Assembly: GCF_964355755.1 (NCBI RefSeq)
Contig: NC_092673.1
Location: 30,439,648 to 30,503,647 of the forward strand
Direction: 5' to 3'
Origin: Antedon mediterranea
Lineage: Eukaryota; Animalia; Echinodermata
DNA: 64,000 bases
Part shown: positions 35,301 through 64,000 of the stretch, piece by piece
How the letters are laid out: every line of letters starts with the position of its first letter
Position numbering within the stretch: position 1 is the first letter of the stretch
Position numbers and translations under genes: made by a program
The notes under the pieces: generated by a model
Databases searched by the model: none
The model's input: the letters and a program-made list of their open reading frames with translations, nothing else
Told to the model about the DNA's origin: nothing

Positions 35301-38300
35301 TGTTCTTGAGTGGGGGGAAAAATGTCACAAGTGATTTAATTTTTGTTCCATTGTACCGTATGAGGGGGTCATTCATGCGTAGCGGCCTCTTATTGGATGA
35401 TGGGTTGGTATATAAAGTGTGTGCGGGAACGGCGCGAGGTTGAAACAAGGAGTTGGGAGTAAGCTGAGTGTTGCATTTCTTGATTGGGTGTGGCAAACTA
35501 CTATTGTTGCATTGATAAGTTGCTAAGCGGAGAAAATAAAGAAAACCACAAAGTAAGAGATATAGATATTTGATGCACACTTCAGCGATATTGTAGTCGT
35601 GTAATAAATAACTCCTTAATTTCTAATCTGAGGTCTTTTTTTACGACTGTTAATTGAGTGGTAGGCTACATTGAAGAACGGATTGACTAATTGGATTTAT
35701 AACTAAAGGACTCTGGCAACCAGAACACTTGTGTGAGTACGGAATAGTAACGATATTGGAATTGAACGAGACGGAAAGGAAAAACTTACTACTAGTACGA
35801 CACGCCATTGAATTGGAGACATTAAAGAAAGACGTTAAAGAAAAGAAGGACGGTTACAGAAATAATGCGTGGAATGTTATATACAACGGCTACTGGTGTG
35901 TGAAATAGTCACCTGATTGGAACTTACATGGCATTATCAACGTGTGAACTTATTGTAATTATATATATATGGAATAGATAGATGAATTATGAAATAACAA
36001 ATATTATATGTGTGGAAAAGAATAGAATAGTATATGAATTTAAGAAATATTGTGAAACAACTTATTGTAATTATATATATATGGAATAGATAGATGAATT
36101 ATGAAATAACGAATATTATATGTGTGGGAAAGAATAGAATAAGGTACGAATTTAAGAAATAGTGTGAAACAAAGTTTTGTTATTATAAATATGGAATAGA
36201 CACTGAATTATGAATTAACGAGTATTATATAATTATGTGGAAAAGAAACGAACATAAATAAGACAAATTGATAAAATTAGTGGCTAAAATATATTACAAG
36301 ATGAATGATTTATAATCGAAGTATATAAGACGAGATAGAGAAAGTGTTGTATTAATTGGATCATAGGGAATGGGGATAGTAATTTAAGAGGGTAATTCGA
36401 GATTTATATGATGAAATTAATTGAATAATATTGTAAAGTGTAACGATGATGCAAGTATACATATAGCGGAGTTAGGGTAGAGTGTATTTGGAATAGAAGT
36501 AATTATTTATTTATTGTTGTATTCATTTATTTGTTTATTGTATTTACTTGGGTTTTGAGTATTAGGAAAGGGGTAAAGGCCATCTCTAGAGATAATTGAG
36601 GGAGTAAAAGGAACTTGTAAGATATTTATTTATGTGTTTATTGTTAACGAGTATTTATTTATTAGATGTTATTGAATGGTTAAATGTGAAACTTCATATG
36701 AATGCTCGTTTGAGCCTGAGGTATAAATGTTTAAAAGAAAAGGAAAAAAAAATAATTAAAATAACGATAGAAGTTCTTGAAGTAATTTGTAATTGTTTTC
36801 TGTATAACTAAATTGGCAAGGTTTCGTGACACCCGGCACCTTTGTTTGCCGACGGCCGCGATGATGTGCCGACGGAAACGAAATCAGGGGGCCCGGGCCC
36901 CCCCGGCCCCCCTACTGGATACGCTACTGTCTATGTGTGTCTAGTGCCGCCGCCCCAATCAACTCGAACCCCGCTCACCTCAACCCTAAGTCGATAATCT
37001 TTTGTGTTGTGTGTAGAGCGGTTACATAAAGCATACCTTAATATCAAATGTTGTACCTTTCTTGAAGTGACTAACAGTTCGATCGTGTTTAAATGTATAC
37101 ACTCGTTCAACAAATTTAGCGCCACTGATCGTTGTATTCTCGCGATCTCCAGTTGATCTTTCGGTAACCACAGCTTCTATTTTCAGAGTTGCGCCTTTGA
37201 ATGTGCTGAACCAGTGTTGGCCATATTTAGGAACGGGATCTATGGAAACGGCAGCCGCTCCTTGGACATTCAACTGTAAAATGTATCATTAATCAATAAT
37301 AAACACTTCATAAGTTTAGTTAGTGTTAAAAACATTTTGTATTTTAAATCATTTCACATTTTTCTAAGAATTCACTGCAATCTTGGTTTTAAAATCTCGT
37401 TTTGTAGCATTGAAAACATAATTTATTAGGACTACGTTACGTCTAGTTAACGTCGTTGAATTAGTGCGAACCAAGCTAAGATTATTATGCGCATGTGTAA
37501 ACAAATACCATGAATTCTGAAATTGAGGATCGTTGATACATACTCAAGGCCAACTTAGACAGCGTCGTACGACGAGGCCCAACCAAACGTCTTGACTCGT
37601 CGGTGCTGTCTGAGACGAGTCGTCTTCAGATAGCGGTAGGTCGTCGCGAGAACAGTAAAAATGTATAATTTTATCGTCGGGCCTCGACGCTGTCTGAGTT
37701 GGCCTTTGTACAACCATGGTGAAGAAGAAGATTTCTGGTCTGCAAAACAAAGTTACTCACAGTTTTAGCTACAGGATCAAATTCACCTATAACGTCACCG
37801 TTTTTTATAACACTCATTTTTACAACAGCGGTACCTCTCACGTACTTATTGTAAACATATCTACACAAAACAATATTATTGTTTTTAATCATCTACATAC
37901 AGTATTCATTTTATGTAGGCCTATTACGATTGTAGAGAGAACAGCTAAAAATGACAGAAACCTTGTATAAAATCCAATACCTTAATACATCATAGATCTA
38001 CTGTAAACATATCTAGTAACGGTACTTTAATCATGTACTATGCATGCAGAAAATACATGTTCCTTACTTTGCTCTAACTGTTGCCACGAGCATGTTATCT
38101 GAAGGTAGAATCTGTTTTTGTCCCTCAATGTTTACCTCGAATGTTGGCAAAACTGTAAATAAATTAGGTTTTAAATTCTACATCATTATGCAATCGTTAT
38201 TCATTTTGTTTGTTCGTTGGAAATTGTGATTTATAACAAATAACTTATTTTCTACCTACCATACTCTCGAAGTTCAAATTCAATTTTGCTTTTCCATTCA

Positions 38301-43827: not shown

Positions 43828-45392
43828 TCAAACCAAGCATCCGTTTTTCATATCTTTCTTGAATTTATTGAGTTGCCTAGCTCTTTTTGTATTCGAACCT
43901 GGCCACTCTTCAATATAGCTAGTACTATCAAGTAGGTACTTAAATCTGTAAAAATGGAACGATGCGTTTTACAATATTCGGACTTTTCCGTTGAAATCAT
44001 AAGATCTCGTAACGTAATTTGATCAATCACAACGCGATGGCTCACTCAAACTGACGTTAATGATCGGTTAGCTCACTTTCCTACGTCATTGGAAGCAAAT
44101 TATAGAGTTTAGTCAACGAATGTTTCTTTTGTTGTGTTATATGGTCACTTTCAATTACTTTTGATAACAACGGTGATTTTTTAAACGAGTTTTACAAAAA
44201 AAATATATTTTTTAATTGAATAGTTATTAATTCTGCTTATTCAGTGATTCCTGAAATGATCATTGTATATACAAGTTTATGCTTAAAAAATGAAAAAAAG
44301 CTTACTTGGTATAGTTGCCATCTTTGTAGGGAATACCATCTTTGCCCATTATCAGATACGTGTGGCCAAGTTGAAAATCTTTACAACCTACACACGAACT
44401 CTTTATAATGAAATTGCGAGGCGATACCGCCGACGCCTCTTCAAATGTATCTTTGCCTACAAACAAATCGATACATTCTCAATGGCTGAGACGTAATGGT
44501 CAGTGATGGGGTCAAGATTATGGCTTCAATCCTGCCTCCTGTAGTATATTGATTGTATCCTTAGATAAGATACTTTCATTGCCGTTGGTCCAGTATAGCA
44601 AAAATGTACTTTAAAGAACTTGGTACTATTTTTTAAAAGTAGGAAATCCCTCCCGGTGGTGTGCTAATATGGGTAGGCGCCTAAATAACCGTTGCGAATT
44701 AAAGTGGGAATTTATTCTGACTTGTTAAGCCTTCACTGATTGTGAGGGCGTTTGTTGTATGAGAGAATGTATCTGGGGGGTGAAAATCTGTGATAATACC
44801 ATACATGGCTCTGTGGTCTAGTGGTATGATACTCGCCCTGTAAGCGAGAGGTTGCAGGTTCGAATCCAGCCAGAGACATTTTTTCATACAACTAAAAAAT
44901 ATGGAACTTTCGCCAATGAGCTATGCTCGACGCGATTATGAGATCATGTTCCGAATATGAGCACTGTTTCTATAATTTACAGTACGATTTATATATAATT
45001 TACACAGTGCTACGCAACATCATTGATTTACATATACACAATATTATTTAAAAAACCGTTGCGAATTAAAGTGGGAATTTATTCTGACTTGTTAAGCCTT
45101 CACTGATTGTGAGGGCGTTTGTTGTATGAGAGAATGTATCTGGGGGGTGAAAATCTGTGATAATACCATACATGGCTCTGTGGTCTAGTGGTATGATACT
45201 CGCCCTGTAAGCGAGAGGTTGCAGGTTCGAATCCAGCCAGAGACATTTTTTCATACAACTAAAAAATATGGAACTTTCGCCAATGAGCTATGCTCGACGC
45301 AATTATGAGATCATGTTCCGAATATGAGCACTGTTTCTATAATTTACAGTATGATTTATATATAATTTACACAGTGCTACGCAACATCATTG

Positions 45393-45448
<56 letters not shown>

Positions 45449-46220
45449 GATGTTGCGTAGCACTGTGTAAATTATATATAAATCGTACTGTAAATTATAG
45501 AAACAGTGCTCATATTCGGAACATGATCTCATAAACGCGTCGAGCATAGCTCATTGGCGAAAGTTCCGTATTTTTTTAGTATTATCACAGATTTCCACCC
45601 ACCAGATACATCCTCTCATACAACAAACGCCCTCACAAACCAGATCTGGTGGGTGAAAATCTGTGATAATACCATACATGGCTCTGTGGTCTAGTGGTAT
45701 GATACTCGCCCTGTAAGCGAGAGGTTGCAGGTTCGAATCCCGCTAGAGACATTTTTTCATACAACTAAAAAAATACGGAACTTTCGCCAATGAGCTATGC
45801 TCGACGCGTTTATGAGATCATGTTCCGAATATGAGAACTGTTTCTATAATTTACAGTACGATTTATATATAATTTACACAGTGCTACGCAACATCATTGA
45901 TTTACATATACACAATATTATTTAAAAAACCGTTGCGAATTAAAGTTGGAATTTATTCTGACTTGTTAAGCCTCCACTGATTGTGAGGGTGTTTGTTGTA
46001 TGAGAGGATGTATCTGGTGGGTGATAATCTGTGATAACACCATACATGGCTCTGTGGTCTAGTGGTATGATACTCGCCCTGTAAGCGAGAGGTTGCAGGT
46101 TCGAATCCAGCCAGAGACATTTTTTCTAAAAAATACGGAACTTTCGCCAATGAGCTACGCTCGACGCAATTATGAGATCATGTTCCGAATATGAGCACTG
46201 TTTCTATAATTTACAGTATG

Positions 46221-46256
<36 letters not shown>

Positions 46257-49200
46257 AAACACAACTAAAGTAATAATTAGAACATATTTATAAATGTTAC
46301 TGTTGAAGTAAACATAGCATACGGTACCTTCTTTTATTCTTGTGGTAACCGTCGCTGTGAGGGTGATAAAACCGTTTCTCACATCCACTGCTTCGACAGC
46401 AACTTCGAACACTGGAGATTTAAAAAAAAAGAAATTGTGTTGTGTAAAGAAAGTTTACATGAAAGTACGGAACAGGAAAAATGCAAACAATTCTCGGATA
46501 GAGGAATGACATAGCCTGCTTGAGCCCTTGAATAAGGTGCAGATTTTAAGAGTTGGATGAACACTTCAATCCATCCATATATATATAAACATAGATAAAC
46601 ATTATTCGTCAAAATGGAATATTTTAAAAAATTCTCATCCTAACGACAACAAGAAAGGATCCCGTTTCTTTTTTGGAAAAAGGGTCAGAGGAGAGACCAA
46701 GCAGTGGCCACCCATAATTCATTCTAGTGATTAATTGACCTCTCTTTCCACTTCCCGTGCCTACGTTTTGATAATGAAATGGAAATAAACACTTTTACCA
46801 TAATCGATTCCACTCCGTTCACTACAAGACTCTTTATACAGCTTAAAACGCGACGCACGGTTTTTTCTAGATCTTCCACACATCGGGCAAGGACCTATTC
46901 AATAACAAAGATAATGACGTAATATTAATAATAATTCAGCTGCATTTACACTTGTTCCGTTTTACGAAACGGAAGACGGCACCGTGTTGGTATGGAAAAT
47001 CATATAAAATAATTAAACGGCGCGGTCGTACATTCTGTGAAACGGACAGAATGTAGCTTTATAATTAATGTTACTTTATAATTAATGTTACATACTGTAT
47101 AACAATACTATTTGAAATAAAATTAAAATATTAACAAGACCTGTTTGATTGATGATGATTGATGTAAGCAGGCTATCACCGGTTTTTACGCTGCAGTTAT
47201 AATTCATGATTAAATTGTATCAAGTGGGTTTACGTTAGTTTGATTATTATATGGTCGTATGGTAGTACAATTTAGAAAAACAATATGGGGAGCCGTTTGT
47301 GACAACGTTGGAAAACAAATACAGAAGTTACCTGCGGTACAGACACAAACATCGCCCTCACACGCTTCCTTCCACTCAGTTTGATCGTCGTCACGTGGGT
47401 TGTAATATGTTGTGCATTTTGTCTCTGTATGAAAAATGTCAAACATTATTTTCAACTAGATAACTATTGAAATAATGAATACATGCATTATGATCAGAAT
47501 ACTAAGTTTAATTTTGTCTGGGAAGTCGTCCTACCTGGGAAATTGTGATCATAAACTGTGATGCTAGCTGACTGGTCATTAACCGTTACACTTGTTTGCT
47601 CAACATTAAATGGTAGTGTTGTTAGTTCTGTTGTCAACTGCAAACAAAAACAAAACAAACAAAAGCACAATGTTCAACTCTAAATTAAAAACAAAATATG
47701 TAACGTAAAGGAAAGGATCCGCAGCGATCATCTCAGCAGTGCAAAGAGTTAGTAAAAATAAAACATCTTCTAAAAAGACGTGCAATAATTCGATTTAAGC
47801 TTGAATCTGATTGAATAAAAATGAAGGTCTCTGATTGGCTTAGACCACACAAACTACACAAAGTAAAGAATGTTTGACGCGCTTAAAGCCGGTTTTCCAC
47901 TGGTATTCTAGGCCTACTAAAGTGTTCACTAATGCGAATGCGTATTAATATAAAAAGAAATAACTTACTTTTTCAAGATACAATGTAACCTTTCTGTCTG
48001 AAGTTACGTAGCGTTCTACAGGGTACTTGACAAATGCAACAAGCTATATGAAACAAAGTTATTGATAGTTCTAAAACTCTAAAAATATATACTAGAAAAA
48101 TAAATAAATACTCTAATTAAAATGATAAACTAAAATAATAAATACGTTTTATTAATTTATGTATCAGTGCCAAATCCGGAATTAGGTTAGTGGGGTTATT
48201 AGTGGGGTGACAGGTCCTACAAACTTATAAATTACATGCCCTTACATTATCCAAGGTGCTTTTTACTGGAGTAAAACCTGCAAGCAAACCAACTTCAACA
48301 ATCACTGTTTTTTCAGGCATTTCAAATTGATACCTACTGTAATAGATATTATATAGTTATTAAATAAAATATATTACTCTTTATTTTACAGTATACAGTA
48401 CGTATAGTCTAGGTTTTAGACGGCAATTCTGTTTAATATTGGTAAAACATTGTTGCATGTCATACGTATACTGGACAAAAATAAAAACGACCGTTGGTGC
48501 CCGTACAGTAATACACAACACAATAACTATAGACTATATCTTGTTGTCACCAGGCGTGACGTAAAGACGTCGAATACGGGCAACGCAAGAAATTGACCAA
48601 TCAAGACGCGAATCCATCGCATCGTGATTTGTCAACTCACATGCGTTGCACCTACCGTACTTGGGGTAATCCGTAAATGTAGGAACACAGTCATCAAAGC
48701 AAATTGTTGAATCAAAGACTCAAAGTGGTTGCAAATGTTGGTAGAGTATAGTAAACAATGCAAGTTCAGATTTATACTTAAATAACTTACTTAACAGTAA
48801 CATCCAGTCTATACAACTTGTTCTCAGCTCCCGCTTCAGCTTCTAACTCTATCATTTGGGCAAATATAAAAAATGCACACTCTTCTCCTGGTGTATCAGC
48901 TTGACTGTTGTAAATAACCTCAACCTAAACATTATTATATATTTATAATATTATTATAAGGAAATTTAAAGTAATAAATTATATTTTATACACAGCACAA
49001 GTACTTTCTTTTAACTAAGGATGTGGTATATAATGTGGGTAGATTTCAGAGTAACAGAAGTGTTAGGATGAATGGTATATTGTTTCTACAGGTAATTAAA
49101 AAGTGAATGTTAGTCAAGGGAGACACTTTATCAAAGTTCCAACCACAGTAATTGACAATATATTTCTATAGACCAACGGGCCACAAAAATGTAGGATAGG

Positions 49201-52200
49201 CTAATTTCTAATTGGCAACCAATGGGAATTCAGAGTGTTTTAATTGGTTACTAAGATGCATACTAGCACACCTCATTGTTAAATTAGCCGTTCAATAGTT
49301 GTACAAACTTTTCAATCTTGTGGATATATTACTGTGGATATATTACTGTGGATATATTACTGTGGATATATTACTGTGGATATATACTTTGTGGATATAT
49401 ATTACTTTGAATCTCAGTACGATCAATTTTCCATATCATAGCCTTTGTTCTAGGAATCGTTCAACCTTCATCAAAACGTTCATCGATTTTTACAACTGTT
49501 TATGGTATCATTTTTTGTTTATTGTGCGTATTTAGTACACTTCAAGCGAACCTGTAATCAATTTATTTGAGACACAATTTCATTTATTATTCTTCAACGG
49601 CAGTTTTCATTAATTTTACTGATATTATTAAAATGGCTCCAACAAGAAGCAAACGCTCAACGCCGTATGATAAGGGAGTTTCTAAAAATAGGCAGGCATG
49701 ATATATAGACAGACGGTCAGGCTAGTTTCCATAAACGTCACAGGATTTAATTAGGGCTCCATCATTGTAATAGTGCACCAACGTGAAGTGTGGGCTTGGC
49801 AGCTAGTAGTCAAATGTATCTTGTGAGTGGCCACCTAAATTATTATTAACAGCGAACACATTCTAGTACTGAAAAACTGAACCAACCGATTCTTAAATAA
49901 TGTTATTGAAATATAACAAATTATGTAAATGCAACGGCCGTAAACGGACATTTACTTATCTGGAGGTCGAAGGGTTTTCGGTTATGAGAGGTTTATTTTA
50001 TTCATCGACTTTCATGCTACTGAGTTAGATTGCCTGGGCGTTAGCAAACATGTTAACCCCCTTAAACCTCAGTACCAATACGAATGAAACGCCAACTCAT
50101 AATAATGTGTTATGAACCTCACAATTTTGAACCACGGCGTACCATTTTTAAACATTCTAGATTACCTGAGCCTGTGCAACACCTTCTCCCGAACATTCTA
50201 TAACAACTGAACCATTAATGGGACACTAAAGGAACAAAATGAATATAATTCAATCATCATCACATAATCATGTTAAAATACTGTAAAAAAGTATTATGTG
50301 CCCATAATTATGGTAGTGATATGCCTAAATATAATAGTGATATGACATCATCATGTCATTATTTCATTTATTCAATATATCGTAATCGCAGCACAAGGCT
50401 GCATTAAAACAATATTAACATGATAATGTCCACATCAAAAGGACAAATATCTAAAAATTTACAAATATAAAAATATAAAGGTGCAAAATTTAAGAATCTA
50501 TAAAAAATATACAAAATTGAAAATTTACAAAAGCAGTACAGAATCCATATTATGGGCACTTCATATTTGTTGTCGTTTGATAGTGTAGACCGAGCTTTGT
50601 TCTTTTCTTAAGTAATTCTTTCATTTTTTCTTTAACCGTATTGTCGTCAATTTCTTTATTCTCCTTGTATTGTAATTCTTTTAAATAAATTGTCAATTTT
50701 AATTCTTTTTCACTCACTGTTTTTTGTGGTAAACTGGTTATTTCGTCAATTTCTACAATCTCATCGTACTTGCTGGTTGATGTAGAAGACAATCCACACG
50801 TCAAATTAACAGAAACAGTTGAGGCTTTACTTGAATATGTAGCTAGTGCTTCGAAGGCAATTGCAGTGTACTATATATAAACAAAACATTCTTATTATAT
50901 TAGGAATATTTCAGTGTTATGTCAATTCACCATCATGCGCAGTTGGTACGTGATTGTTAGTTTCTAGGTCCAGACGATGACCGCTGACATCAATAGACAT
51001 GACCTAACTTGTAAGTCATCGGTCGTCGTTACAATTCAAAAGTTGCCATTAGAAAAATAGAAGAGAAGTGGATGCAAAATATGTACAGTATAAAGAAAGG
51101 TTGCACACGCACACACGCACCCACACACACACAAACAAACCAAAAACAAAATACTAACGGATGTAGAACTGTACCCGCGTTTGAAGTCTCCGTGTTCCGT
51201 CAGCCAATTCACCATACCGTTTGCATACGTAATCTCATTCCTGTGGACAGCAGTCAACAACGCATAGCTTGTTGCTTCGACCGTCAGTGCCTTTAAGTGC
51301 ATAGTAAAGTGACGTAGGCCCTTAATTGGATCAAACAAGGCGTCTTCTCTCACTCTGTTCCATATTTCATCTTTAAATGGACTGTTTACCACATTCAATG
51401 CGTATGCTACGACTGTACGATGGTAAACTGTTTCTAAAGTATTGAAATTGGCCTCAAGGTACGCAATAGTTTTTGCAAGTATGTCATCATAATTCTACAA
51501 AATGAAAAGTACTTGTTTAAACATTTCTGGCTAGTATATGTCTACACTGTGTAGTGGCCGTAACCTGCGTTCATGGAACTGTGCTTTCGAAGTGACCTAG
51601 TGCCTCCAGTCCCAACGAAGATAATACTAATGTTAGGTTGATACATACCACAAGACAAACAACTGGTTTATTCTCTAAGTTTTCTGGATTGTATTTTACT
51701 AAAGTTGTGACCACAAATGCTGTCATCATCGTCGTTTCGCCACTGATTCCAACCTAGAATTAATAATAAGTTATTATGAATTTAACTCTGTAATTTATAA
51801 ACTTACTGTACATAAGGCAGCCGATACAAAAACATTAAAGTACTACAAACTATACTGTATGGAATTAGTAATGCATCTTTCTTCAGGATTTTTCCCCTAT
51901 GTACTGACTGGTCGTGGAAGAGTGAGAGGAAAATAGCATTAGCATGAATAATGTTTACTCTTTCTAGACAATGATGTTTACCCCAATGCATTACAATACA
52001 GAATCTGTAGAAATTTCTACATTCTTTTTACACTTACGGCCATGTCGCGATACACAACTGAGTTTCCTTCGTAGAATATGCCCTGGTTTGCATCCCTTCC
52101 AGATTCCTTGTATCTCGTTTCAAAAAATTTAAACGCGTTGCATAGTACATTATTGTCAACACTTCTTCCAAGTACAATCATATTGTAGAAAGCTTTAACT

Positions 52201-55200
52201 GTGTAAGCCGTCAGCCTATTGAAAAATAACAATATGCTAGTTTAGTCATTTTTTTGTCATCTTGATAATATCTTTGGATTCAAAAATATGGTCCTTACCT
52301 TTAACTATACCTCTTAAAGTCGTTTTACCTGTAAAATGTGTAAGATGTTTCGTGAAAGTAAGTTATTTAACATGACATTGTATGTAATAAATGGGTGTCT
52401 TTCTTTTAATGTCTTATAAAATGGACGCGACTTGATAGTAATTCCTTTTTGATATACTGTAGAGATATAATAATACCCACCAAGTACTGCCAGGTCTACG
52501 ATCTCCCCACGCTGAAAATGACCCGTCATCCGTTCTCTGATAGGTGATCATTCTCTCGTAACCTATTGTAAGGTACTTATAATCTTTATTAAATTCACAT
52601 AAACTGTAAAAGAAGACCGCGAACGACACTACCAGAAACACTTAATAACGACCAAAAACCCTCTAGCTTGAAAATGTGGTTAAAATAAAAGCAATTCTAC
52701 AAAAAGAACTGAATTGATAGATCTTGCAAGGTATATCTCCAGGGCAACACAGGCGGATACGTACGTACATGGGCTTCTGGGTGAATAGATTGTACATAAG
52801 TAAACTGGTTGAATGAATAATTAAAAATTACATACCTTTGTCAACATTCAAAAAGCCGTCAGCTTTAATCTGAGCAGTGACTTGATTTGTTTTGTCCAAG
52901 TATAACATTGTGTAGACATTAGCAGACATAAACATCATTGTAGTTTCACCATCTCCGACTGGCTTACGGATTAATGCGTTAGGGTCTAGGTCTTCAATTA
53001 CTGAACTAACAGTAGGTGTCATCATACCTGTAATATAACATACGGTAGTACAGTAATGTTAGGTCTTAATGACAACAATACTCGAATTGCCAAGAAGTTG
53101 AGGCAATGCAAGGACTCCGCATCATTGTTCTGATGGTTGGCAGGAAGTCTTACCGGATAAGGACTTCAAACGGGAGGTCTAGTGTATTTATATTTGGCTC
53201 GTGTGCACTAAGGACCCGCTGCATCTTTCTGAATAAAGTAGTACTTGTCCAACCTCATTCTTCATCCTGTCGCCGTGGAAAGACGATGATGAAAGAAACT
53301 GTTGCAAAGGTTTATATTTTATAACACATATTCATAACAACTTTATACACAAATCTACCATTTAAAATCAAATTCTTTGCGTTTCCTTTTTGCATTATGT
53401 CGATTAGCACAAAAATAATTAATCTTACGTCGTCTGGAAGCCAATAATGACGAATGTTTTAAACGGCGCCCCGTATTTTATATATTTGCTGTATTAACTT
53501 ACCAGATAATGTGATGAAACATTGTTCTGTTCCTGGTATTGCATTTGAGTCAATAATTGATATATTGACGGTGTCCTTCTGTAAACTATTTTCATAATCA
53601 GTGAATGCTATACATAATATAAATTTTTATTTTTATAATGAATGATATATGTAATATAATTTTAATCTTTACATTATACAAATGTTACGACATAGTGAGC
53701 TCAAATAAAAAAAAAAACACCTTGAAACATGGCCTAAAGTTAATAATTTTCAAATTGTTTAATCCCAAATAGCTTTACATGCACAATTTGAGCTACATCC
53801 GGACCAGCAAAATTAGGACAGGATTGTGCTTATGGATTCACTCCTAAACTATCCCTCACAAACAGAATTTTGACGGTCCGAACATATCTGACAATTTCAG
53901 ATTGTGAAAAAACTGCGCAATGAAATCATTCCCTAGCTTTGATCAACACTTTTTAATAAAAAAAAAGTAAAAACATTTTATGGAAATGATGACATCAGAT
54001 ACTAACTTTCTATAATTTGGAATTCGTTATCCAACGGTTGATCAGGTTCTTCTACCTCTCCAGCTTCTGCTTCATTTGCACGTGACCCAGTAGGATCGAT
54101 CAACAATACTTTAGAATGGTACCTTTCAACTCCTTCAGGCTGTCATGTTAAAAAGTTTATATACAGTATCATACCAGGTTAGAGTTAAATTAATTTAACT
54201 TTTCCCTGATCATACATATTCACAACAAATGTGTGTTCATTTTTCAGTATATCTATTTCCTGTACTCTATATATATAGTACAGCAATGCATTATATAATT
54301 TGAATATAAGCAACTTACCACAACCAAAATTTGTTTCCGGATTCCGTCAATTCCGGAAGAGGAGAAAACTTCGATTTCAATTTCATGGCTGCCAACATTA
54401 AATGGCGTAATGTTGAAATATGTGGTTTTTTGGTCGTTCTTTTGTATAGTCAACTTGTTCTTAGGTCCCCTTTCTTCAGAAAGACTTTCGTAGCAAAAGT
54501 TCCCGGCACCATACATATACACATTTGCCTTCAAATAATAAGGTAAGTAAGGTAAGGTAAGTAAGGTAAGGTAAGTAAGGTAAGGTAAGTAAGGTAAGGT
54601 AAGTAAGGTAAGTAAGGTAAGGTAAGGTAAGTAAGGTAAGGTAAGTAAGGTAAGGTAAGTAAGGTAAGGTAAGTAAGGTAAGGTAAGTAAGGTAAGGTAA
54701 GTAAGGTAAGGTAAGTAAGGTAAGGTAAGTAAGGTAAGGTAAGTAAGGTAAGGTAAGTAAGGTAAGGTAAGTAAGGTAAGGTAAGTAAGGTAAGGTAAGT
54801 AAGGTAAGGTAAGTAAGGTAAGGTAAGTAAGGTAAGGTAAGTAAGGTAAGGTAAGTAAGGTAAGGTAAGTAAGGTAAGGTAAGTAAGGTAAGGTAAGTAA
54901 GGTAAGGTAAGTAAGGTAAGGTAAGTAAGGTAAGGTAAGTAAGGTAAGGTAAGTAAGGTAAGGTAAGTAAGGTAAGGTAAGTAAGGTAAGGTAAGGTAAG
55001 TAAGGTAAGGTAAGTAAGGTAAGGTAAGTAAGGTAAGGTAAGTAAGGTAAGGTAAGTAAGGTAAGGTAAGTAAGGTAAGGTAAGTAAGGTAAGGTAAGTA
55101 AGGTAAGGTAAGTAAGGTAAGGTAAGTAAGGTAAGGTAAGTAAGGTAAGGTAAGTAAGGTAAGGTAAGTAAGGTAAGGTAAGTAAGGTAAGGTAAGTAAG

Positions 55201-58200
55201 GTAAGTCCCTTATTCATTTCTGAACGTAGGGTAATGAGCTTTAGGAGTTCATTAAAAAAAATTAATAAAAGAAGAAATAATTTGTTTAAAAGGGTTTAAT
55301 AAATATTATTATTTTATAAATATATAAAATAAGTCTATATTTGTAGGCCTAATGTAATGTAAGTCATACAGTTTTTACTCGCCTCGAAAACGTTTATAGG
55401 AATGTATTTTATTAGAAAACACCTATTTGGTTGAAAAATTATGTTATGAGTTAACATAAAAGAGAGAGAAAAAAATACATTAAAATATGATATGTATCAA
55501 TTATAAGAGAAAATGATGGTAAATAATGATAATGAATAGAGAAAAGATTACAACAACAATTAAAATCATATAAAACTGACTATGAACCAATGTGTACAAA
55601 TTAATATAGGCCTACAGTATTTATATAAAAATGTATATGATGGAAATAAAAGTGGGATGAACCCACATAAGACAAAAAAGAAAACACCTATTTGTGCCGT
55701 TGCATCACACTGGTAACGAATCTTTAAATTCGGCTACAAGTTATATAACTTTAAAATACTAACAGTTATGTCTTCACTTCCGTAGTTAAACACAGTAGCC
55801 TGAACTTGTGTCTGTTCGCCTCTGACCATTGAATACGGCATCTTCAGCTGTAAAAACACATCTTTTGAAACAGCAATCTCCTTTTCGTCTGCTACACACA
55901 TTCCCATTGCAGCGGACAATGATGAAGCCTGTACAATCCAGTTGGTGATACTGTCAGGCACGGCGAAGGTTACGTTCCTCTTGCCGTTATCACTAAAAAA
56001 ATAAGAAATGTTACACAGATTTGATTAATATTGCAATAAATGTGTTCCTAATTCTGATACGATACTTACGGAATATTAAGTTGTTCAAAAATCCATGTTT
56101 CTGGGAAATTTCTTCTGACGCTGACTTCAAAACTGTTATCGATCTCTGTCTCATCACCATCAACCCGACCTGTAAAAGAATAAAACAACATTTATGCAGA
56201 TCACTAATTCGTTGAAAAAATTCTTCATCCATCATTTATATAAGCCTAGTTACTTATATGTTTATATTTCCTTTTAAATTCCTTTCCTAAAGCTTGAAAA
56301 CACCGTTTATTAATATATTTTAAAACGACACAAAACAAACGTCGTTTACGATACGAACAAAATTGGTCAATGTCAAACTTGTTAATGTTTATTTTTATGT
56401 TTAGTACTTCGTACGAAAACTATTAGATTGACTCCATACTTTAATCATTGTTTTTCTCTTCCTACCTACTTTATTTTACCATCTGCCGTTCATTCTTATT
56501 TAGATTGTTCTTTCGCTTTATATATCAATAAAGTCGGTTTTCCACTTGGCGAATCGAAAGCGTCAGCATAATTACATTCAATTCTGGGGGAGTTTTGGAT
56601 AGCTTCATGAAACTTTTCCAAATAAGAATGGGTAGGCCCAGTGCAATTGTAGTGCCAAAGGGAAGTAAAACCGAGAAAGCAAATGAAACTCACCGTCTGA
56701 TGCTCGTCTTCGGCGTCTTTGTGACATCGTTGGACATTCATACCCTAAATTGTTGTAGAGATATTTTTTTTAATATACTAAACATTATATTTGTATAGAT
56801 TTAATGAATATGTGAGGCGTTTATACTGAATTTACTACTTTATCCGAATTGTTTTGCTACATATGATTATGGCATTTATTTCACAAGATTTCCTTTTTCT
56901 TAAACAATTGGATTCCATTCTAAAATACAGTAACATAATAATAGTAAGTTGCATTTCTGTACCTATTCGGACATCTGTTTCATGGAAGTTCCTATACAAA
57001 TTAACATCCGTCATGGCAACCAACCCGGCATTTTCAAATACTTCTTTACCATTTGCACCGCCGCCTGGTCCACAACCTAGATCAAGTGTTGCCATTCGTT
57101 GAAACACCTACATATTGAAAACAGATTGTTATAAAAGGCGTACTAATTTCTAAAATGCAATAAACCTATAACATGTTTAAACATAGACTCAATTAAGTTA
57201 TTGAACTAGAGGACCATTATAACCAAAACATGTTTATGCTCTGTATTAGTTGGCATTTGATGAAATAAATATTTGTTGAATTTCAACATACGAGGACCAT
57301 GAAAACTAACATTTAAACACAGAACCATGTGATCAAGGATTCGAACACAGAACGGGTATAAAGTCCATGGGAGCTAGCTCGCTACCTACGGTTTTAACAC
57401 AGGAAGATCATCGGAGAAAACATCCTAATACTGGAAGACCATCTGAACACAGGAAGACTGTTTGAGCTAGGACACAGGAATCTACAATATTAAACTTTAT
57501 GTGACAAAAATATGATGTGCCCATATATGGACACGTGACGTCATATCACTACCATGGGCACTTCACATTTTGTCAAAATAGTTTGATAGTGTAGACAGAG
57601 CTTGACATTTTGACAATTCAATCCACGTAACGTTTAAAAGCATTTCGATATCGCTCTATGGTGAGTCCAAGTTCACAAGCCGAGGGGACCGCTCATGCTT
57701 AGAAATTTACCCGGCTTTCATAAACTTTACCCGGGTTCATAAAATTTACCCGGGTTTCATAAACTTTACCCGGGGTAAACAACGGTGTAATATAATAGAC
57801 ATATTATTCAAACCTTTTTTCTTGTTAAACGGTGGATGTTCTTAAGAGAATATACAGCCTTGTCAACAGCTAACAGCGATACTGTACTCTGAGGTGAACC
57901 GGTAATTGTAAATATTGTATCTTGACCCGGTTTTAAAGTTGCATCATCCACATTAACAATTAACTATAAATCATAAAATACAGGTTTAGATCGTTTTTAA
58001 AATATAGAAACTAATGTTGTGTACAGTATAAAATAATTTTAGAACTATTTTTTTGTTATGTTTCCATTTTACCTCACCAGTAAAACGAACCAATAGGAAA
58101 TATTCCCTTCTTAAAATAAAGTTAGTATTATTTAAGGTTGTATACACGCATTGGCGCAGTAATTTATAGACCGACTAAAGAATTTGGAACCGAAATTGGG

Positions 58201-61200
58201 TTAAATTTAATTATTATTAATGATTTGTATTCAAATTCACATTTATTTACTCATCCTTTATAAATATGTATATGTATTCATTGAATAAAGATATCTTGTC
58301 CCCCTAAAATAATAATTCTTAGAATTATTTTTGTTTAATATGCCGTTTTAATGTCACATAGGTCCTAATAGTTATTCACTTTGGCAAAAAATTGGATAAA
58401 AAAATTATTTAATTTTAAAAATCGTCAAATTGGCCGCCACCCAATGGGTTTACTAACCATTTATTTTGTTATTTCATTTTTCTACGAAAGTGATTAACTT
58501 TATTAAATCTACAAAATAAACTATTCAAAATCTGATTTAATTAATCTTAATTTTTCATGTTTTTGGGGGACAATACATCTTTTAAATAAAGTAAACACAT
58601 TAGCAACCAAAGATGAATTGCTACATTTTTTTTATTAACAATTAAAAATATCAAACAAAATATAATAAAGTGCTAACCTGTGATTTACATTCTTCCACAA
58701 TATCCAATAATATCGAGTCCGCCACTACTTCATTATTTACTAAAGCATATACGACCAGTCTTGCACTAGGCGCCATATCTTTCGTTATATCGATACGAAT
58801 TGTCTTCTTAGCTCCAAGTTTAAAATCAAGATCTGAAAAGTGTTGTACAATTTTCCCTCTAACTACCACCTAGTATTTTAGGAGAGAAAGATATTTATCT
58901 TGATATGTATTTTTCTATTAAGGAAACAAGAACTATGTAATCCATGGTGGTAACCAAAGCAAATATCTAATCAAATAACGTACAATATAATTCAAACCAA
59001 ATACAGCAACTGTTCCAGACTTGACTACTTCTACTTCAAAGTTTTGGGTTTCCTAAAAAAAAAATAATCCGGCAAAGCAACTAGTTATATTAATATAGTA
59101 TGCTTAAACGAAACAGATGTACTCCGTGTATAATCGTAGATAAATTGTCCGCTCAATCTGTTTATGATTCCTACCAATTTTAGACATTGTTCGCCACTTC
59201 TCAGTATTTCTTATAAAATACTCCGGCAATCTTCGAAGATAAGGATAAGGATTTGGATAAGAACACGTTGTATTCACTTTAAATTCAATTTTCGGTTGGT
59301 TCGATTTGGCTGCCATAGCGATGTCGATCAAATTTGACTTAAATTTGAGTGTGGCCATAAATGGAATCTGCAAACATTATCCAGAATTTCCACATACATC
59401 CAAAATTTGACACAAGTTGCTCAGACTAGAAACGTGTATTAGCTTACCTTAATCTCACCAGGAGGTACTCTTATCTGTAAGTACGCACCACTTGCACTGT
59501 CTATTGGGTGAATAGTGAACTCGTAAAACCCATTTTCTGCTTCAGGAAAGTTGTTATCTAAAGTTTTAATCTAACATAATAAACCAAAGAAAAAGTCTTC
59601 TATTAACTTATTTTATATGACTTTATTTTACTAGTTTTTCATAAAAATGATATAGCCAGTTGATATCTTATTATGTGATAGACTGTGTTATCCACAACAG
59701 CCAATCCGAAGTTTTCCTGCTACTATAGCCTGGCCTTGTGTCCAGTCGTTAATAAGAGAGGGTAGTATATAATGTGAAAGTTGGGTTAGTTATTTAGTCG
59801 CACTTTCTTATACTGATCGAAGCGGCTGCGGTAGACTATAGGCGATCACGACATAACAATGATTAGTTAAACGAAACTTTATTAAACGATAAGTTATTTT
59901 TATGAACAATCATTTATTACTGAAACTTGATGAAATTGTTTTTCACATTTATATTACTTGTTAATAGACAAACGAATTATATTTTTTACAAAAAGTTGAG
60001 ACTCACTGTGACTCTAATTGACTCAGTATCTTGATTAACATCTACATGAAAATCTACTTGACCCAGGTCATTACTTGATCTTTCCAGTTGAAAATCTTTG
60101 TGCCCCGTGAGCTTCTTCCTAATGCCTTCCACACTGAAGCCATAAACGTCAATTTCAGTCAGGACTCCTACTCCTGGAGATCCATTGGAATGGAATAAAT
60201 CAATCTAAGAAACAAACACAATTGAGAAATATTTAATTTGCAGCAGGAATCATGCTGTCCAATAATTTTGCTTATAAGTAATTATGAAACACAAGGAATT
60301 CAGATCACATGCTTCTTTAAATAGTCTAGGTTAAAGACGGTGATGTGATACAGTATTTCTTATTCTTGGCGTACCATACTATTCTTTTGTTGAAATCTAG
60401 TTACGAACTGCAGCGCTCATATGAATATTTACAAAGTAAAGAGATGCAATATAGACGCAGAGAAGTTGTTGTGCTTTGTATATTATTTTCTTCTTTCCTC
60501 TTTTCCTTAACATATTTGTAGGAAATACATAATAATAAACTGAAAATAAAATCTAATAATTAAAATATTCTATTTCAAGCAATTCACAAATCATCTGAAA
60601 GAAAATGTACTCGTTTCTGGTAAAACATACCTTAACATCAAATGTTGTACCTTTCTTGAAGTGACTAACAGTTCGATCGTGTTTGAATGTATACACTCGT
60701 TCAACAAATTTAGCCCCACTGATCGTTGTATTCTCGCGATCTCCAGTTGATCTTTCGGTAACCACAGCTTCTATTTTCAGAGTAGCACCTTTGAATATGC
60801 TGAACCAGTTTTGGCCATATTTGGTATCAGGATCTATTGAAAAGGCAGCCGTTCCTTGTGCATTTAGCTAGCAAAAATTGTTTCGTAAAATGTGGTTATG
60901 TTTGTTTGGTATTATTTATTTATACTGGTCGACCTCTTTAGTCGTAGACTGGTTTCAGAGAGGTCCCAGTTTTTATCAGTGGCTGTGTGTACTAGTACAC
61001 TGGTGTAACCACCTACTCTTCTAGAAATATGCACTAGGTTCTTTAAACTGCTCATGAGCTAAATGTGTACATTGGATACGAATTATAGTCCTTATCCGAG
61101 AAGACTCGTTCTACCACCAAAACTATGGACCGAATGAGGCTCGAGTTTGCCATAAGTTCCATTGCCTCAACCGCTCGGCCACTTACAATGCAATAAATAT

Positions 61201-63078
61201 GCAATAATATAATAATGATAATATAATAATAATAATGCAATACATTAGTAAGCCTACTCACAGTTTTGGTTGCAGGATCAAATTCACCAATAACTTCACC
61301 TTTTTTTAAAACACTAACTTTTACTACAGCAGCCCCTCTCACGTCAATGTTGTTTACGTATCTAAACAATAATACAATGATGTTTATAATCATATCAACA
61401 AATCAGTATGTAATAATATAGGGTATGTTCAAACACAGAGTTATGGTTTACCAATTTACGCAGCGTACAACTTCGTAGTCGCAGAAGATTTGACAATTTT
61501 TAAAGACTAAAATTAGAAGCCATGAAAGGAAAAAAACAAGTTGAATGGCTTACTAAAAAAAGATTTACAATAATTTAAACATGATAAACTGACAAACCCT
61601 TTTCATATAACGGGACTTAATTATTACTGAATTATATATAGAAAATGCAAACTGCTTACTTTGCTTTTACAGTCGCCAGAATCAAATTATCTGAAGGCAG
61701 AATCTGTTTTTGCCCTTCAATTTTTACCTCAAATGTTGGCAAAACTGTAAATAAATTAAGTTTTGAATTATCATTTTCAGGTAATCCGTGAGTTGTGATA
61801 ATAATAATACATAATGTTCTTAGTCAAAAAAATTATAACCAGTAATTTATATTTATATTCTACCTACCATATTCTCGAAGCTCAAATGTAATTGTGTTCT
61901 TCCATTCATGCTAAAGAAATCATAAACAGAAATAGTGTAGTAAATCAGTGCAAACTAGGTCTAACATTAAAAAACGGGTGATATTTATAATAATAACAAT
62001 TAAGAAAAGTGCATAGTTTTGGTAAACTTAGGTTTACATCAATTATATAAGAATAATAATAATGCTCAATTTAATATAGAGCAACATTCAGGGTGCCTTT
62101 AAGCGCTGAACAATCAACATATTTATATAACAACATATTAATGATGAAAGTGTAATTTAAAAAGTTGTTTGAATGAGTGGCCATAAATTATTCATTATTC
62201 ATGGTATTATTCTGTGACAGGTGTATCACACTGTGTAGACGATCTTCAAATTAGGCCTACAGGCCGTTGACGGTTAACTTACGTTTGGGCCGTATGACAC
62301 AACAACAGACCAAATTCCAAATGTCGGGTACGAAGAGAACTGGTATATTGCAGTATGATAGCCAGTAATTGTAGTAATATCTTCAGTCCTCTCAATAATG
62401 GCGCCGGTTGGTGTGATAATATCTAATCGAACCTTTCTGTCGGTAGGTTTGAGTTGCTCATTCAAAGAAATCACTTGGATTCTAGCTACAATGAATAAAA
62501 ATGATATTCTTATTATTATTTCGTATAACTTGTGAAGATAAGGGATATAAGAATCAGGCTAGTTTGGAGAAACATTGGAATTGGAAAAAATAATTTTTAT
62601 TTTTAAATAATTGTACTTGTGCAACATAGCAGTGTGAGGGAAAGAAGGGTTGGGGCATGGATATTGACCCGGAAACAGTATAGGGCTATAAGATGACCTT
62701 TAAGCGTTATGTTTATACAGGTAAAAGGATCCAGAATATTCTTCATTCAGGCAGATTCAGATACAATCATATTGTATGATATTTGTAATTTGTTTAATAT
62801 GTGTTATAGTGAGAGTCAATAAAGAATTACCATATTGGTTTGCAAGTACCCGTATGTTATAAGATTACCATATTACGAACCTACTTGAGCAGGAGTATAA
62901 ATGGGTTTGTCGGTTTGGACAAACACAACCTGATTTTTTGTTGTCACCAAAGCAGTAACAGTTTTACTAAATTGAAGCACAGGAGAGGTAGAAAATGCAA
63001 GAACTCGTATTGTTGGAAATACTTCATAGTCTGGTAGTTGGGCTGGATCCACAATAAAATTAACAAGTTTAGGTAAAC
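43828..63078 (-). CDS. Complement C3-like paralog, gene 2 (5'-partial; lacks anaphylatoxin domain, thioester and catalytic His)
   Basis: Exons homologous to gene 1 exons 3-35: 62885-63078, 62283-62485, 61868-61910, 61660-61744, 61262-61361, 60631-60867, 60007-60204, 59448-59570, 58984-59052, 58678-58869, 57814-57963, 56963-57107, 56694-56744 (RRRRR), 56070-56169, 55764-55992, 54319-54528, 54007-54139, 53503-53607, 52836-53027 (GDGET), 52481-52562, 52038-52215, 51649-51753, 51159-51494, 50718-50870, 50166-50225, 48791-48924, 48246-48333, 47969-48043, 47535-47637, 47332-47424, 46799-46894, 46328-46411, 44306-44456, 43828-43945 (YIEEWP...GCLV*). No stops or frameshifts in the exons read. Exons 1-2 presumably lie beyond the window end. 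Confidence 0.9.
44687..46252 (+). repeat. Tandem/inverted array of a ~367-bp tRNA-containing repeat with (TA)n tracts
   Basis: Units start at ~44687 and ~45054, then (TA)n at 45397-45444, an inverted partial copy at ~45447-45640, two more units at ~45645-46220 and (TA)n at 46224-46252. Confidence 0.92.
44807..44878 (+). ncRNA. tRNA-like Pol III unit (tRNA-Pro-like D/anticodon arms, TGT in the anticodon position); copies at 45174-45245, 45680-45751, 46048-46119
   Basis: GGCTCTGTGGTCTAGTGGTATGATACTCGCCCTGTAAGCGAGAGGTTGCAGGTTCGAATCCAGCCAGAGACA followed by a T-run. It has A box, B box and a 72-nt cloverleaf, with mismatches in the acceptor and T stems and C at position 33. Confidence 0.7.
49319..49405. 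repeat. 14-bp minisatellite (TGTGGATATATTAC)n, ~6 copies
   Basis: Direct reading. Confidence 0.9.
52942..52956 (-). other. Degenerate thioester position GDGET (gene 2)
   Basis: Codons GGA GAT GGT GAA ACT in [20 protein letters not shown], aligned to gene 1 [20 protein letters not shown]. Confidence 0.95.
54540..55206. repeat. Satellite (AAGGTAAGTAAGGT)n, 14-bp unit, ~47 copies
   Basis: Nearly perfect array in the gene 2 intron, ending 9 nt from the acceptor AG at 54529-54530. Confidence 0.98.
56704..56718 (-). other. Beta/alpha furin-type site RRRRR (gene 2)
   Basis: [17 protein letters not shown]. Confidence 0.9.
57703..57779. repeat. ~20-bp tandem repeat (AAA.TTTACCCGG.TTTCAT), 4 copies
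   Basis: Direct reading. Confidence 0.75.
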
Positions 63079-63539
63079 CTAGGAAAAAAGAAGTTTGTAC
63101 ACTTAGATGTTAAAACATGCTTTACACATAACGTAAGCTGTCACTAGCCAACCGGATCTAACATGTTGTCACTTTTATTCAACTATATTTATTATATCTG
63201 AACCAGGATTACCCACATGTTCGATTAACTATATCTGATACATAAGTGATACATATAAGACCAAGATAAAATTGTTAATGATAATGATAGTATTATTAAT
63301 GATAACAGCTACCAAATATAAATTATGGAAAATTTCTTTCGGAAAACATACTTGATATTTAGTTAGCTTTTTTATTTGAAAAAAAAATAGAAAAAGGTTA
63401 CTTGATGAGGGATAGGCTTCAAATAAGTGAGAATGGTCTACATTTTTCAACGCAAGTACTTTTAATACGCGAGTACTATGGGAACTTTCCCTCCTCTTTT
63501 TCTAAATAGGTTTTTACTTAAATCTTTTTAAATCTTTAA

Positions 63540-63971
63540 AGATGTATTGTCCCTTGAAACACAAAAAATAAAGGTCAACATATTATATATTTATATTGGA
63601 TATATCAAAGTAATATTAAAGTTATTCACTTTAAGTTGAAAATTCAAGCCAAAAACAACAAGTTTACCTAATTAACAGGTAAATTAATTTGATTACATTT
63701 CCTCTGGAAAATCGCCGCGAGCGAAAGTAAACAAAGATTTCAAAACATGAGAAGGTGTTTTCACACAGATCGCGAGGAAGTTTTATGAGTAGCCAAACAA
63801 GCCCGTACGTTGCGTTATGAGAGATGTTTTGATCGAAAACGTTTGTATTTCAGTATTTTTCGACTAATTTTTGGTGAAAGTTAATAACTATTATGATACT
63901 TCAAAATGACCCACTTTTTATCGAAATTTTAAATTTTTTTGGGGGGAATTAGTCAAAGAGACAATACATCT
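63540..63971. mobile_element. Non-autonomous TIR element with TTAA TSD (Kolobok-like); relative at 58289-58580
   Basis: TTAA|AGATGTATTGTC ... GACAATACATCT|TTAA. Confidence 0.75.
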
Positions 63972-64000
63972 TTAAACTTGCTTTAACAAAATGATACAAT

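Follow-up and report, generated by a model that had tools for sequence, protein, structure and literature searches.

An intact crinoid C3 paralog lacking the anaphylatoxin domain and the thioester: a candidate pre-opened, C3b-like protein in Antedon mediterranea

Can a complement C3 gene that has lost both its anaphylatoxin domain and its thioester still encode a working protein, which would be made in the C3b-like form from the start, or is such a gene a duplicate that is fading away? The question is raised by a 64,000-nt stretch of Antedon mediterranea contig NC_092673.1, here called the window, which carries a canonical C3 gene (gene 1) and a paralog with these losses (gene 2). Their features are as follows.

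8321..40461, minus strand: gene 1, canonical C3 (XP_071948262), 35 exons, 1698 aa, anaphylatoxin present
21597..21945, minus: gene 1 exon 16, 349 nt, anaphylatoxin and alpha'NT
18739-18725, minus: gene 1 thioester motif GCGEQ
16868-16866, minus: gene 1 catalytic His
43828..63078, minus: gene 2, C3 paralog, exons 3-36 (34 exons, 1538 codons within the window)
57814..63078, minus: gene 2 exons 3-13, MG1 (part) to MG6-beta, the gene 1-like half
56963..57107, minus: gene 2 exon 14 (LNK)
56835..56962, minus: read-through into gene 2 intron 14 up to a stop, as in XP_071948904
56694..56744, minus: gene 2 exon 15, with the furin site RRRRR at 56718-56704
56170..56693, minus: gene 2 intron 15, 524 nt
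56070..56169, minus: gene 2 exon 16, 100 nt, with the convertase-site Arg, acidic alpha'NT and start of MG6-alpha
54319..55992, minus: gene 2 exons 17-18 (MG6-alpha, MG7)
52956-52942, minus: GDGET in place of the thioester GCGEQ (gene 2 exon 21)
52052-52038, minus: YRDMA, catalytic His to Tyr (gene 2 exon 23)
48246..48333, minus: gene 2 exon 29 (MG8), two-codon deletion removing a Met
47542..47553, minus: YDHN in place of the MG8 motif YDYY (gene 2 exon 31)
43828..47424, minus: gene 2 exons 32-36, anchor and C345C

Structure of gene 2 and its losses

Gene 1 is 100% identical to P0004 (RefSeq XP_071948262) of A. mediterranea. Exon boundaries in both genes were fixed by coordinate and their sequence taken from the window; in gene 2, all 33 introns are GT-AG and the single stop is terminal. 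Exons 1 and 2 lie outside the window and are inferred from the RefSeq model P0122. Every gene 1 exon from exon 3 on has a counterpart in gene 2, as the initial annotation held, but gene 2 has one additional intron (47968-47638, within MG8). The annotated furin site, MG8, anchor and C345C are all present in an intact reading frame. RRRRR corresponds to the tetrabasic beta-alpha processing site of the C3/C4/C5 subfamily and is predicted to be cleaved. Full-length alignment with three intact paralogs places MG1-8, LNK, CUB, TED, anchor and C345C in order, and, as in those paralogs, the chain ends two residues past its final Cys. A 14-nt tandem array of 47 copies (54539..55205) stops 10 nt short of the exon 18 acceptor.

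The exon 3' of the furin site is 100 nt in gene 2 (56169-56070) and 349 nt in gene 1 (21945-21597), with equal phases. The shortfall of 249 nt bears out the loss of 83 codons, including six cysteines. When the lost stretch was modelled (pLDDT 79.5), C5a/C3a entries filled the best 10 Foldseek rows, although with weak E values (0.38-0.93), and the Pfam ANATO profile matches two of the four crinoid copies (best E 0.013). On its six cysteines and the Foldseek ranking of its predicted fold, the stretch is the anaphylatoxin domain. The initial annotation had allowed that an ANATO exon might be missing from the assembly between 56170 and 56693. That such an exon lies hidden in intron 15 was rejected: no remnant was found in the 524 nt, where the alignment score lies within those of shuffles (157 of 300 as high), and tblastn of four crinoid ANATO sequences against the window matched the gene 1 exon alone. 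By eye, splicing to an alternative acceptor further upstream, at 56287, leads to an in-frame stop. Five residues remain after the furin site, the last being the convertase-site Arg, and the acidic alpha'NT is retained. Furin would therefore start the alpha chain near the alpha' N-terminus, as proposed, but with a five-residue stub ahead of it.

The change of GCGEQ to GDGET was found as annotated. The change described as HQEMI to YRDMA stands as a loss of the catalytic His, which is present in 95 of 120 relatives, but the real change is His to Tyr alone, since the closest intact paralogs have VHKDM there. The conserved Gly after the catalytic-loop site is Val. Beyond the earlier observations, gene 2 has also lost both the Met and the Tyr-Tyr of MG8 that face the thioester; the Met is kept in 113 of 120 relatives (six gaps, one Asn). 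A literature search for the human numbering of these shielding residues found nothing. Lacking the anaphylatoxin, the CGEQ thioester and the catalytic His, gene 2 is not a canonical C3, nor is it C5-like, a type in which the anaphylatoxin is retained.

Ancestry, selection and gene models

Gene 2 is a mosaic. Its 5' half comes from the gene 1 lineage (72-87% identity in MG1-MG5) and its 3' half from a paralog resembling P0003, whose best PDB match is human C3 (E 9e-150), with the switch at about exons 17-18 (54319..55992). With 13-39% of residues differing from the nearest paralogs, neither half simply repeats a gene that already exists. Unequal crossing-over in the C3 array may have joined the two lineages. 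The "tandem pair" of the initial annotation oversimplifies the locus: this contig carries at least four C3 genes, and the gene 2 alpha chain stems from another paralog. Trees nest gene 2 among crinoid C3s with support 100/100 (for the alpha chain, using a reduced set of rows and a model without mixture) and reject orthology to a described anaphylatoxin-less TEP subfamily, which had been entertained as an alternative. No ortholog of gene 2 was found among the crinoid proteins recovered.

Judged from its sequence, gene 2 has been under purifying selection, since its cysteines are kept (22 of 22, not counting those of the anaphylatoxin, thioester and signal peptide) and its dN/dS against gene 1 is 0.2-0.3, far from the pseudogene-like value of 1. 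Pairwise dN/dS is 0.30 (95% bootstrap 0.20-0.45) for exons 3-8, the least diverged block (dS 0.29), 0.26 for exons 9-15 and about 0.2 for the alpha chain, whose dS approaches saturation; these values average both lineages and are compatible with recent silencing of gene 2. When neutral evolution of the alpha chain was simulated in 2000 runs, frame and splice sites survived in 0.2% at 8.4% amino-acid change and in 4.7% at 4%. Eight small lineage-specific indels in gene 2 all keep the frame.

Ten of 110 widely conserved alpha-chain columns are altered, eight of them in the thioester, the catalytic loop or the face of MG8; the hypergeometric P of 6e-7 for this clustering was set aside because the regions were drawn after the changes were known. 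Taken together, the widely conserved columns show no significant shortage of change (10/110 vs 50/324 changed, p 0.11). The gene 2 alpha chain has evolved about 3.5 times faster than that of P0003 (46 v 13 changes). Its excess of change over this sister is concentrated in TED and MG8 (36 v 6) and not in MG7, CUB and C345C (18 v 12; Fisher p 0.025). MG8 is the most changed large domain, at 14 of 73 informative columns. According to passages of 10.1101/2025.08.09.669456, factor B/C2 is contacted in human structures by the C-terminus of C345C, alpha'NT, MG2, MG6, MG7 and CUB. Of these, C345C, CUB and MG7 are not accelerated in gene 2, while MG2, MG6 and alpha'NT, the 5' domains on the factor B side, have changed in excess when set against gene 1 (18 v 5, p 0.01). 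N-glycosylation sequons number 8 in gene 2 and 1-2 in gene 1 and P0003, with a shuffle mean of 12.

RefSeq splits the gene 2 locus into two fragments, one covering exons 1-14 and running into intron 14 and the other covering exons 27-34. The protein that ends in intron 14, XP_071948904 (706 aa), is a beta chain only. The RefSeq N-terminus, from DNA beyond the window, lacks Met at the position of gene 1's Met. The protein searches brought up no protein spanning exons 15-26. The break coincides with the exon 14 donor, the weakest of 67 in both genes by a leave-one-out weight matrix (2.2 bits). By the same matrix, the exon 15 donor (rank 65/67 from weakest) and exon 16 acceptor (rank 61/67) are strong, and the gene 1 exon 16 acceptor is the weakest of 67. 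Two ATTAAA motifs follow the read-through stop, at distances of 30 and 61 nt; chance alone makes the motif frequent in such AT-rich sequence. A run guessed to be RNA contained no exon 16 piece, and the 56694-56169 joint was absent from the 15 of 307 joints listed, a blank that weighs neither way on expression.

Related C3s and known systems

To call the system previously undescribed, as the initial annotation did, is too strong, since such C3 paralogs have been published for sea bream and gastropods. Gilthead sea bream C3.1.7, as described in passages of PMC7768046, resembles gene 2 in belonging to a tandem family, keeping the furin site and C345C, lacking the anaphylatoxin, and having an acidic alpha'NT, a lost thioester (GSGES) and a changed MG8 Met. 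Unlike gene 2, it keeps the catalytic His and MG8 tyrosines, and it is a teleost gene of separate origin. It was reported as a transcript, and those passages offer no C3b-like reading. The features in common, a furin site leading directly into alpha'NT, no thioester Cys or Gln, and a retained C345C, define a grade and not a clade. In portions of PMC8960428, gastropod C3-like type I is another invertebrate C3 duplicate that has lost anaphylatoxin and thioester, and a thioester-less clam C3 is reported as not haemolytic.

Database C3s of Xenopus laevis (P0248, P0270), Anolis sagrei (P0110) and Labeo rohita (P0112, P0124) also lack the anaphylatoxin span and the thioester Cys. The Xenopus paralogs have further lost the His and YDYY (which has become YDSN), and the Anolis paralog the His and the MG8 Met. 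All of these are gene predictions only. The Anolis and Labeo paralogs group in trees with the C3s of their own lineages and not with gene 2; those of Xenopus were left out of the trees. Among relatives without the anaphylatoxin span, 4 of 8 also lack the thioester, versus 12 of 181 with the span (p 0.002, kinship ignored).

Complement C5 and C5-like invertebrate C3s have no thioester either, but keep the anaphylatoxin and require a convertase cut. Insect TEP1, alpha-2-macroglobulin and CD109 share the missing anaphylatoxin but not the C345C of gene 2, which nests in crinoid C3s. C3b, C3(H2O) and cobra venom factor bind factor B and have an open shape without a live thioester, reached by proteolysis or hydrolysis; in gene 2 that shape would come from the gene structure, and the product may bind factor B. 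Mature cobra venom factor also lacks the TED. Uncut thioester-less TEP1 is stable and TEP1 is closed despite having no anaphylatoxin domain, while thioester-less TEP1 precipitates after cleavage (PMC3464232). Thioester-broken human C3 is described in PMC7136553 as a weaker convertase partner than C3b. Literature searches found no paper naming both "Antedon" and "complement C3", and nothing useful on recombinant C3a-less C3 or pro-CVF.

A proposed pre-opened scaffold and its rivals

Ordinary C3 is held shut by its anaphylatoxin domain, which braces MG3 and MG8, and by the contact between TED and MG8, which shields the thioester. Because both braces are gone, the gene 2 product, if made, would likely take an open, C3b-like shape. 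Gene 2 itself is probably a working gene. Full-length splicing would likely give a secreted, furin-cut, two-chain protein that folds directly into the open shape and acts without covalent binding. Such a protein might load factor B, the least supported step, and prime the cleavage of armed sibling C3s; this convertase-priming role is doubtful. The C3b-like, non-covalent product proposed in the initial annotation gains support from the MG8 shielding losses, the purifying selection and the co-loss elsewhere, and stays a prediction. The best explanation overall, with a probability of about 0.45, makes gene 2 a mosaic but undamaged C3 paralog that likely encodes an open, non-covalent scaffold, which would load factor B and prime its sibling C3s.

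The RefSeq fragments, the weak exon 14 donor and an alpha-chain acceleration like that under relaxed selection speak against this. So do the N-terminal Met absent from the RefSeq model, the excess change in MG2, MG6 and alpha'NT, the precipitation of cut thioester-less TEP1 and the weakness of thioester-broken human C3 as a convertase partner. The first three points fit a fading duplicate, once selected but now silent or expressed mainly as a beta-chain-only transcript ending in intron 14, with losses due to relaxed selection after a chimeric birth. The ATTAAA motifs past the read-through stop, the drift of sequons (8 vs 1-2) towards the shuffle mean and the lack of an ortholog among the crinoid proteins found point the same way. 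Nevertheless, for all its divergence gene 2 shows neither a stop nor a frameshift and every intron is still GT-AG, the cysteines are kept, the conserved-column changes cluster at the thioester machinery and the new exon 16 acceptor is strong, which leaves fading unlikely. False assembly, by a missing anaphylatoxin exon or the joining of two paralogs, would also account for the mosaic ancestry, and the DNA runs covering the locus may come from the assembled sample. It is extremely improbable: the window contains no N, 30 of 30 bins of 55300-64000 are covered with single-copy-like depth over intron 15, one contig (possibly from the assembled sample too) spans 56288-56772 gap-free, the halves are 13-39% divergent from their nearest paralogs, and a run from another study contains gene 2 pieces at 56535-56693 and 58702-58913.

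If the protein is made, it might instead be an open, non-covalent decoy or brake that engages factor B, regulators or microbial evasion proteins but forms no active convertase, or an opsonin or receptor ligand. To judge by cobra venom factor, a convertase scaffold that is permanently open would use up C3 if it were not kept under tight control. The TED is whole though unarmed and may therefore serve as a binding surface, change is under way in the 5' domains on the factor B side, and the clam C3 noted above is reported as not haemolytic (PMC8960428). The unaccelerated C345C, CUB and MG7 and the kept C-terminal spacing argue the other way, and a decoy or similar role seems somewhat less likely still than fading. 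A working protein of closed, native-like shape, as in TEP1 and the alpha-2-macroglobulins, to be opened or used otherwise, is improbable. It is consistent with the stable, closed TEP1 (PMC3464232) and the kept convertase-site Arg, but the MG8 face that would hold the TED closed is the most changed (14/73), and furin would already cleave the chain as it is made.

The trigger of the alternative pathway remains under debate (PMC7136553), with tick-over by thioester hydrolysis set against other triggers, and invertebrates are poorly known in this respect. So far, anaphylatoxin-less C3s have appeared in papers as functionally unexplained oddities. The joint loss of anaphylatoxin and thioester is of a known kind; the MG8 Met and Tyr-Tyr losses, the kept cysteines, the dN/dS and the mosaic are new here. 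A speculative extension, which we consider unlikely, is that C3 arrays repeatedly yield an unrecognised functional class of pre-opened, unarmed C3b mimics that replace tick-over, loading factor B on secretion and firing their armed siblings, which would cover the crinoid, teleosts, frog, lizard and gastropods. Since convertase and substrate meet through MG4-MG5, a beta ring derived from gene 1 would match the gene 2 scaffold to its gene 1 substrate. That anaphylatoxin, thioester and MG8 shield have been lost together more than once gives a concrete, testable prediction. A fading gene 2 would be an ordinary outcome of birth and death in the C3 array; if the pre-opened scaffold is real, a C3 born C3b-shaped would give complement a trigger or brake that is encoded in a gene and can be switched by transcription.

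Two C3 genes and the ancestry of gene 2

The window holds two C3-family genes arranged head to tail, whose exons were defined by coordinates and then translated:

40461-8321, minus strand: gene 1, canonical C3, 35 exons, 1698 aa
63078-43828, minus strand: gene 2, its paralog, 34 exons in the window (numbered 3-36), 1538 codons
27551-36831, opposite strand: recent Ty3/Gypsy LTR retrotransposon inside gene 1 intron 8 (12.2 kb)
47638-47968: MG8 intron of gene 2, absent from gene 1
48334-48339: tandem acceptors of gene 2 exon 29, 3 nt apart, both in frame; the RefSeq fragment takes the upstream one
44400-46300: a 367-nt unit repeated about four times in gene 2 intron 34; it contains a 158-nt palindrome, 96% perfect, with a TA run at its centre

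The gene 1 protein is identical to RefSeq XP_071948262 (Antedon mediterranea). The frame of gene 2 is uninterrupted and every intron is GT-AG. Two further Antedon C3s, P0003 (1701 aa) and P0002 (1099 aa), apparently lie on the same contig. The anaphylatoxin domain (ANATO), the GCGEQ thioester motif and the catalytic His are all present in gene 1, P0003, P0002 and the Anneissia japonica C3 (P0005). The TED of gene 1 (17740-17815 and 16854-17025) is divergent, forming the longest crinoid branch in the tree (0.55) and lacking the usual DGSF-type motif that gene 2 and P0003 retain, but gene 1 keeps its thioester and His. The retrotransposon has a protease-integrase-RT-RNase H order, a SCAN domain and a single open frame of 1532 codons (30681-35279); its two LTRs, which match at 98.9-99.6% identity, have TG..CA termini. 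A 5-bp target duplication is present, and the left LTR is split by about 1.5 kb.

Judged from sequence comparison, gene 2 is a mosaic of two C3 lineages. Its MG1-MG5 domains share 72-87% identity with gene 1 and 49-71% with P0003, while CUB to C345C share 61-83% with P0003 and 44-55% with gene 1. The beta-chain tree groups gene 2 with gene 1 (100/100), the alpha-chain tree groups it with P0003, and exchanging these partners is rejected by AU tests (p 3e-8 and 3e-4; nine rows, with groups picked after the first trees had been seen). Unequal crossing-over would have placed such a hybrid, 5' from gene 1 and 3' from P0003, directly upstream of gene 1, provided that P0003 sits further upstream. Along the gene, the dS between genes 2 and 1 climbs from 0.29 up to about 2, a gradient pointing to conversion of the 5' end at a later time.

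Losses in the alpha chain

The initial annotation described three losses in gene 2, and all are borne out: GCGEQ has become GDGET, the catalytic His is Tyr, and exon 16 measures 100 nt where its gene 1 counterpart has 349 nt. The 83 missing codons encode six cysteines in the intact copy; the predicted model of this stretch is a helical bundle, for which each of the first 10 Foldseek rows is a C5a or C3a entry, with weak E-values. Intron 15 contains no ANATO remnant, and DNA contigs run across it with ordinary coverage. The exon 15-16 junction pairs a strong donor with a strong acceptor (65th from the weakest among the 67 donors of both genes and 61st among the 67 acceptors, respectively). In the alignment with human C3, exon 16 begins with the convertase-site Arg. 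Furin would therefore leave a stub of five residues, the last of them this Arg, ahead of the acidic alpha'NT. The acceptor of the gene 1 ANATO exon (21946-21960) is the weakest of the 67 acceptors, which may have eased a shift to a downstream acceptor in the gene 2 ancestor, or may permit an alternative form of gene 1.

Two features go beyond the initial annotation: the mosaic origin and a fourth loss, in MG8, where a Met is deleted and YDYY has become YDHN. The Met is present in 113 of 120 relatives, and the first changed Tyr in 112 of 120. They correspond to about residues 1378 and 1460 of mature human C3, assuming no gaps near the ends of the alignment range, and we take these residues to shield the thioester; a literature search found no statement to this effect. 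The TED-MG8 contact as such does shield the thioester, and ANATO braces MG3 and MG8 (PMC3464232, PMC8167298). Gene 2 alters 10 of the 110 alpha-chain columns that do not vary among the intact Antedon paralogs (three) and reach at least 85% conservation outside them; eight of the ten lie at the thioester, the catalytic loop or the MG8 face. All 22 other cysteines are retained. The gene 2 protein has eight N-glycosylation sequons, gene 1 one and P0003 two.

Gene 2 belongs to the C3 subfamily. A canonical C3 is ruled out by the missing ANATO, GCGEQ and His; a C5-like protein and an A2M-type TEP are also ruled out.

Parallels in other animals

C3 paralogs of this type have been described before. 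Sea bream C3.1.7 also lacks ANATO and has a mutated thioester (PMC7768046); it retains the furin site, with GSGES and an MG8 Met-to-Leu change, but, unlike gene 2, keeps its His (PMC7768046 Supplementary Figure 6). Gastropod type I C3 likewise lacks ANATO and thioester but also the cleavage site, whereas gene 2 keeps its furin site; thioester loss is recurrent (PMC8960428). The available parts of PMC4057122, PMC13365339 and 10.64898/2025.12.13.694092 contain no additional case. The literature search, with most subscription journals outside its coverage, returned no paper on Antedon C3 and, in the text available, no proposal of a gene-encoded C3b mimic.

Our survey took 120 matches and the 78 of 142 new matches having a C345C region; 189 were scorable and 9 were skipped. 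Eight of the 189 lack the ANATO span, and the thioester is absent from four of these, versus 12 of 181 with ANATO (p 0.002, uncorrected for kinship). The four, from Xenopus laevis, Anolis sagrei, Labeo rohita and Scleropages formosus, are predictions only, and some models may be faulty. The closest parallel is Xenopus laevis P0270/P0248, with a furin site, no ANATO, thioester Cys or His, and YDSN where gene 2 has YDHN. Labeo rohita P0112/P0124 lacks ANATO and thioester and carries two C345C domains in tandem.

Activity and predicted role

Gene 2 is probably a working gene. Counting for this are pairwise dN/dS values of 0.30 (0.20-0.45) for the youngest block and 0.2-0.3 for the others, and eight small indels that are all in frame (gene 1 has seven, P0003 and P0002 two each). 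In 2000 runs of a neutral simulation, frame and splice sites survived in 0.2% at 8.4% excess change and in 4.7% at 4%. Counted against it, and for a fading gene, is that RefSeq divides the locus into XP_071948904 (exons 1-14, continuing into intron 14) and XP_071948903 (exons 27-34), with the break at the weakest donor. Three protein searches found no protein containing exons 15-26, and the alpha chain has evolved 3.5 times faster than that of P0003 (46 versus 13 changes), which count the same way. In sequencing run X1, RNA by guess only, contigs over the conserved exons of gene 2 differ from it by letters that agree with gene 1 at 11-12 of the 13 exonic places listed and checked, which include two at 55917-55919; 55917 mismatches gene 1. 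The X1 pieces near-identical to gene 2 lie in introns or, at depth 3, span an exon-intron border.

ANATO and the TED-MG8 contact, the two braces that hold C3 closed, are both gone from gene 2; its protein would be expected to open, and a C3b-like form from birth is the natural and plausible prediction. Human structures show contacts of factor B or C2 with the C345C C-terminus, alpha'NT, MG2, MG6, MG7 and CUB, and the convertase meeting its substrate via MG4-MG5 (10.1101/2025.08.09.669456). Excess change in gene 2 relative to P0003 is concentrated in TED and MG8 (36 versus 6) compared with MG7, CUB and C345C (18 versus 12; p 0.025). MG3-5 are not accelerated (10 versus 12), but MG2, MG6 and alpha'NT are, relative to gene 1 (18 versus 5, p 0.01). 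As a signal on a factor B role, this pattern is mixed. Caution also comes from thioester-broken human C3, a poorer convertase partner than C3b (PMC7136553), and from thioester-less TEP1, which precipitates once cut (PMC3464232). Overall, a factor B-loading scaffold would be the likeliest single role, at a probability of roughly 0.3. A fading gene lies close to that figure, and a decoy or non-covalent opsonin, also near it, is a shade more doubtful. Partnership with gene 1 as an initiator is hypothetical.

Gene 2 represents an independent variant, from an echinoderm, of a kind of C3 that recurs and is already in print, with a putative function, and the Xenopus laevis pair provides a practical test case for C3 of this type.
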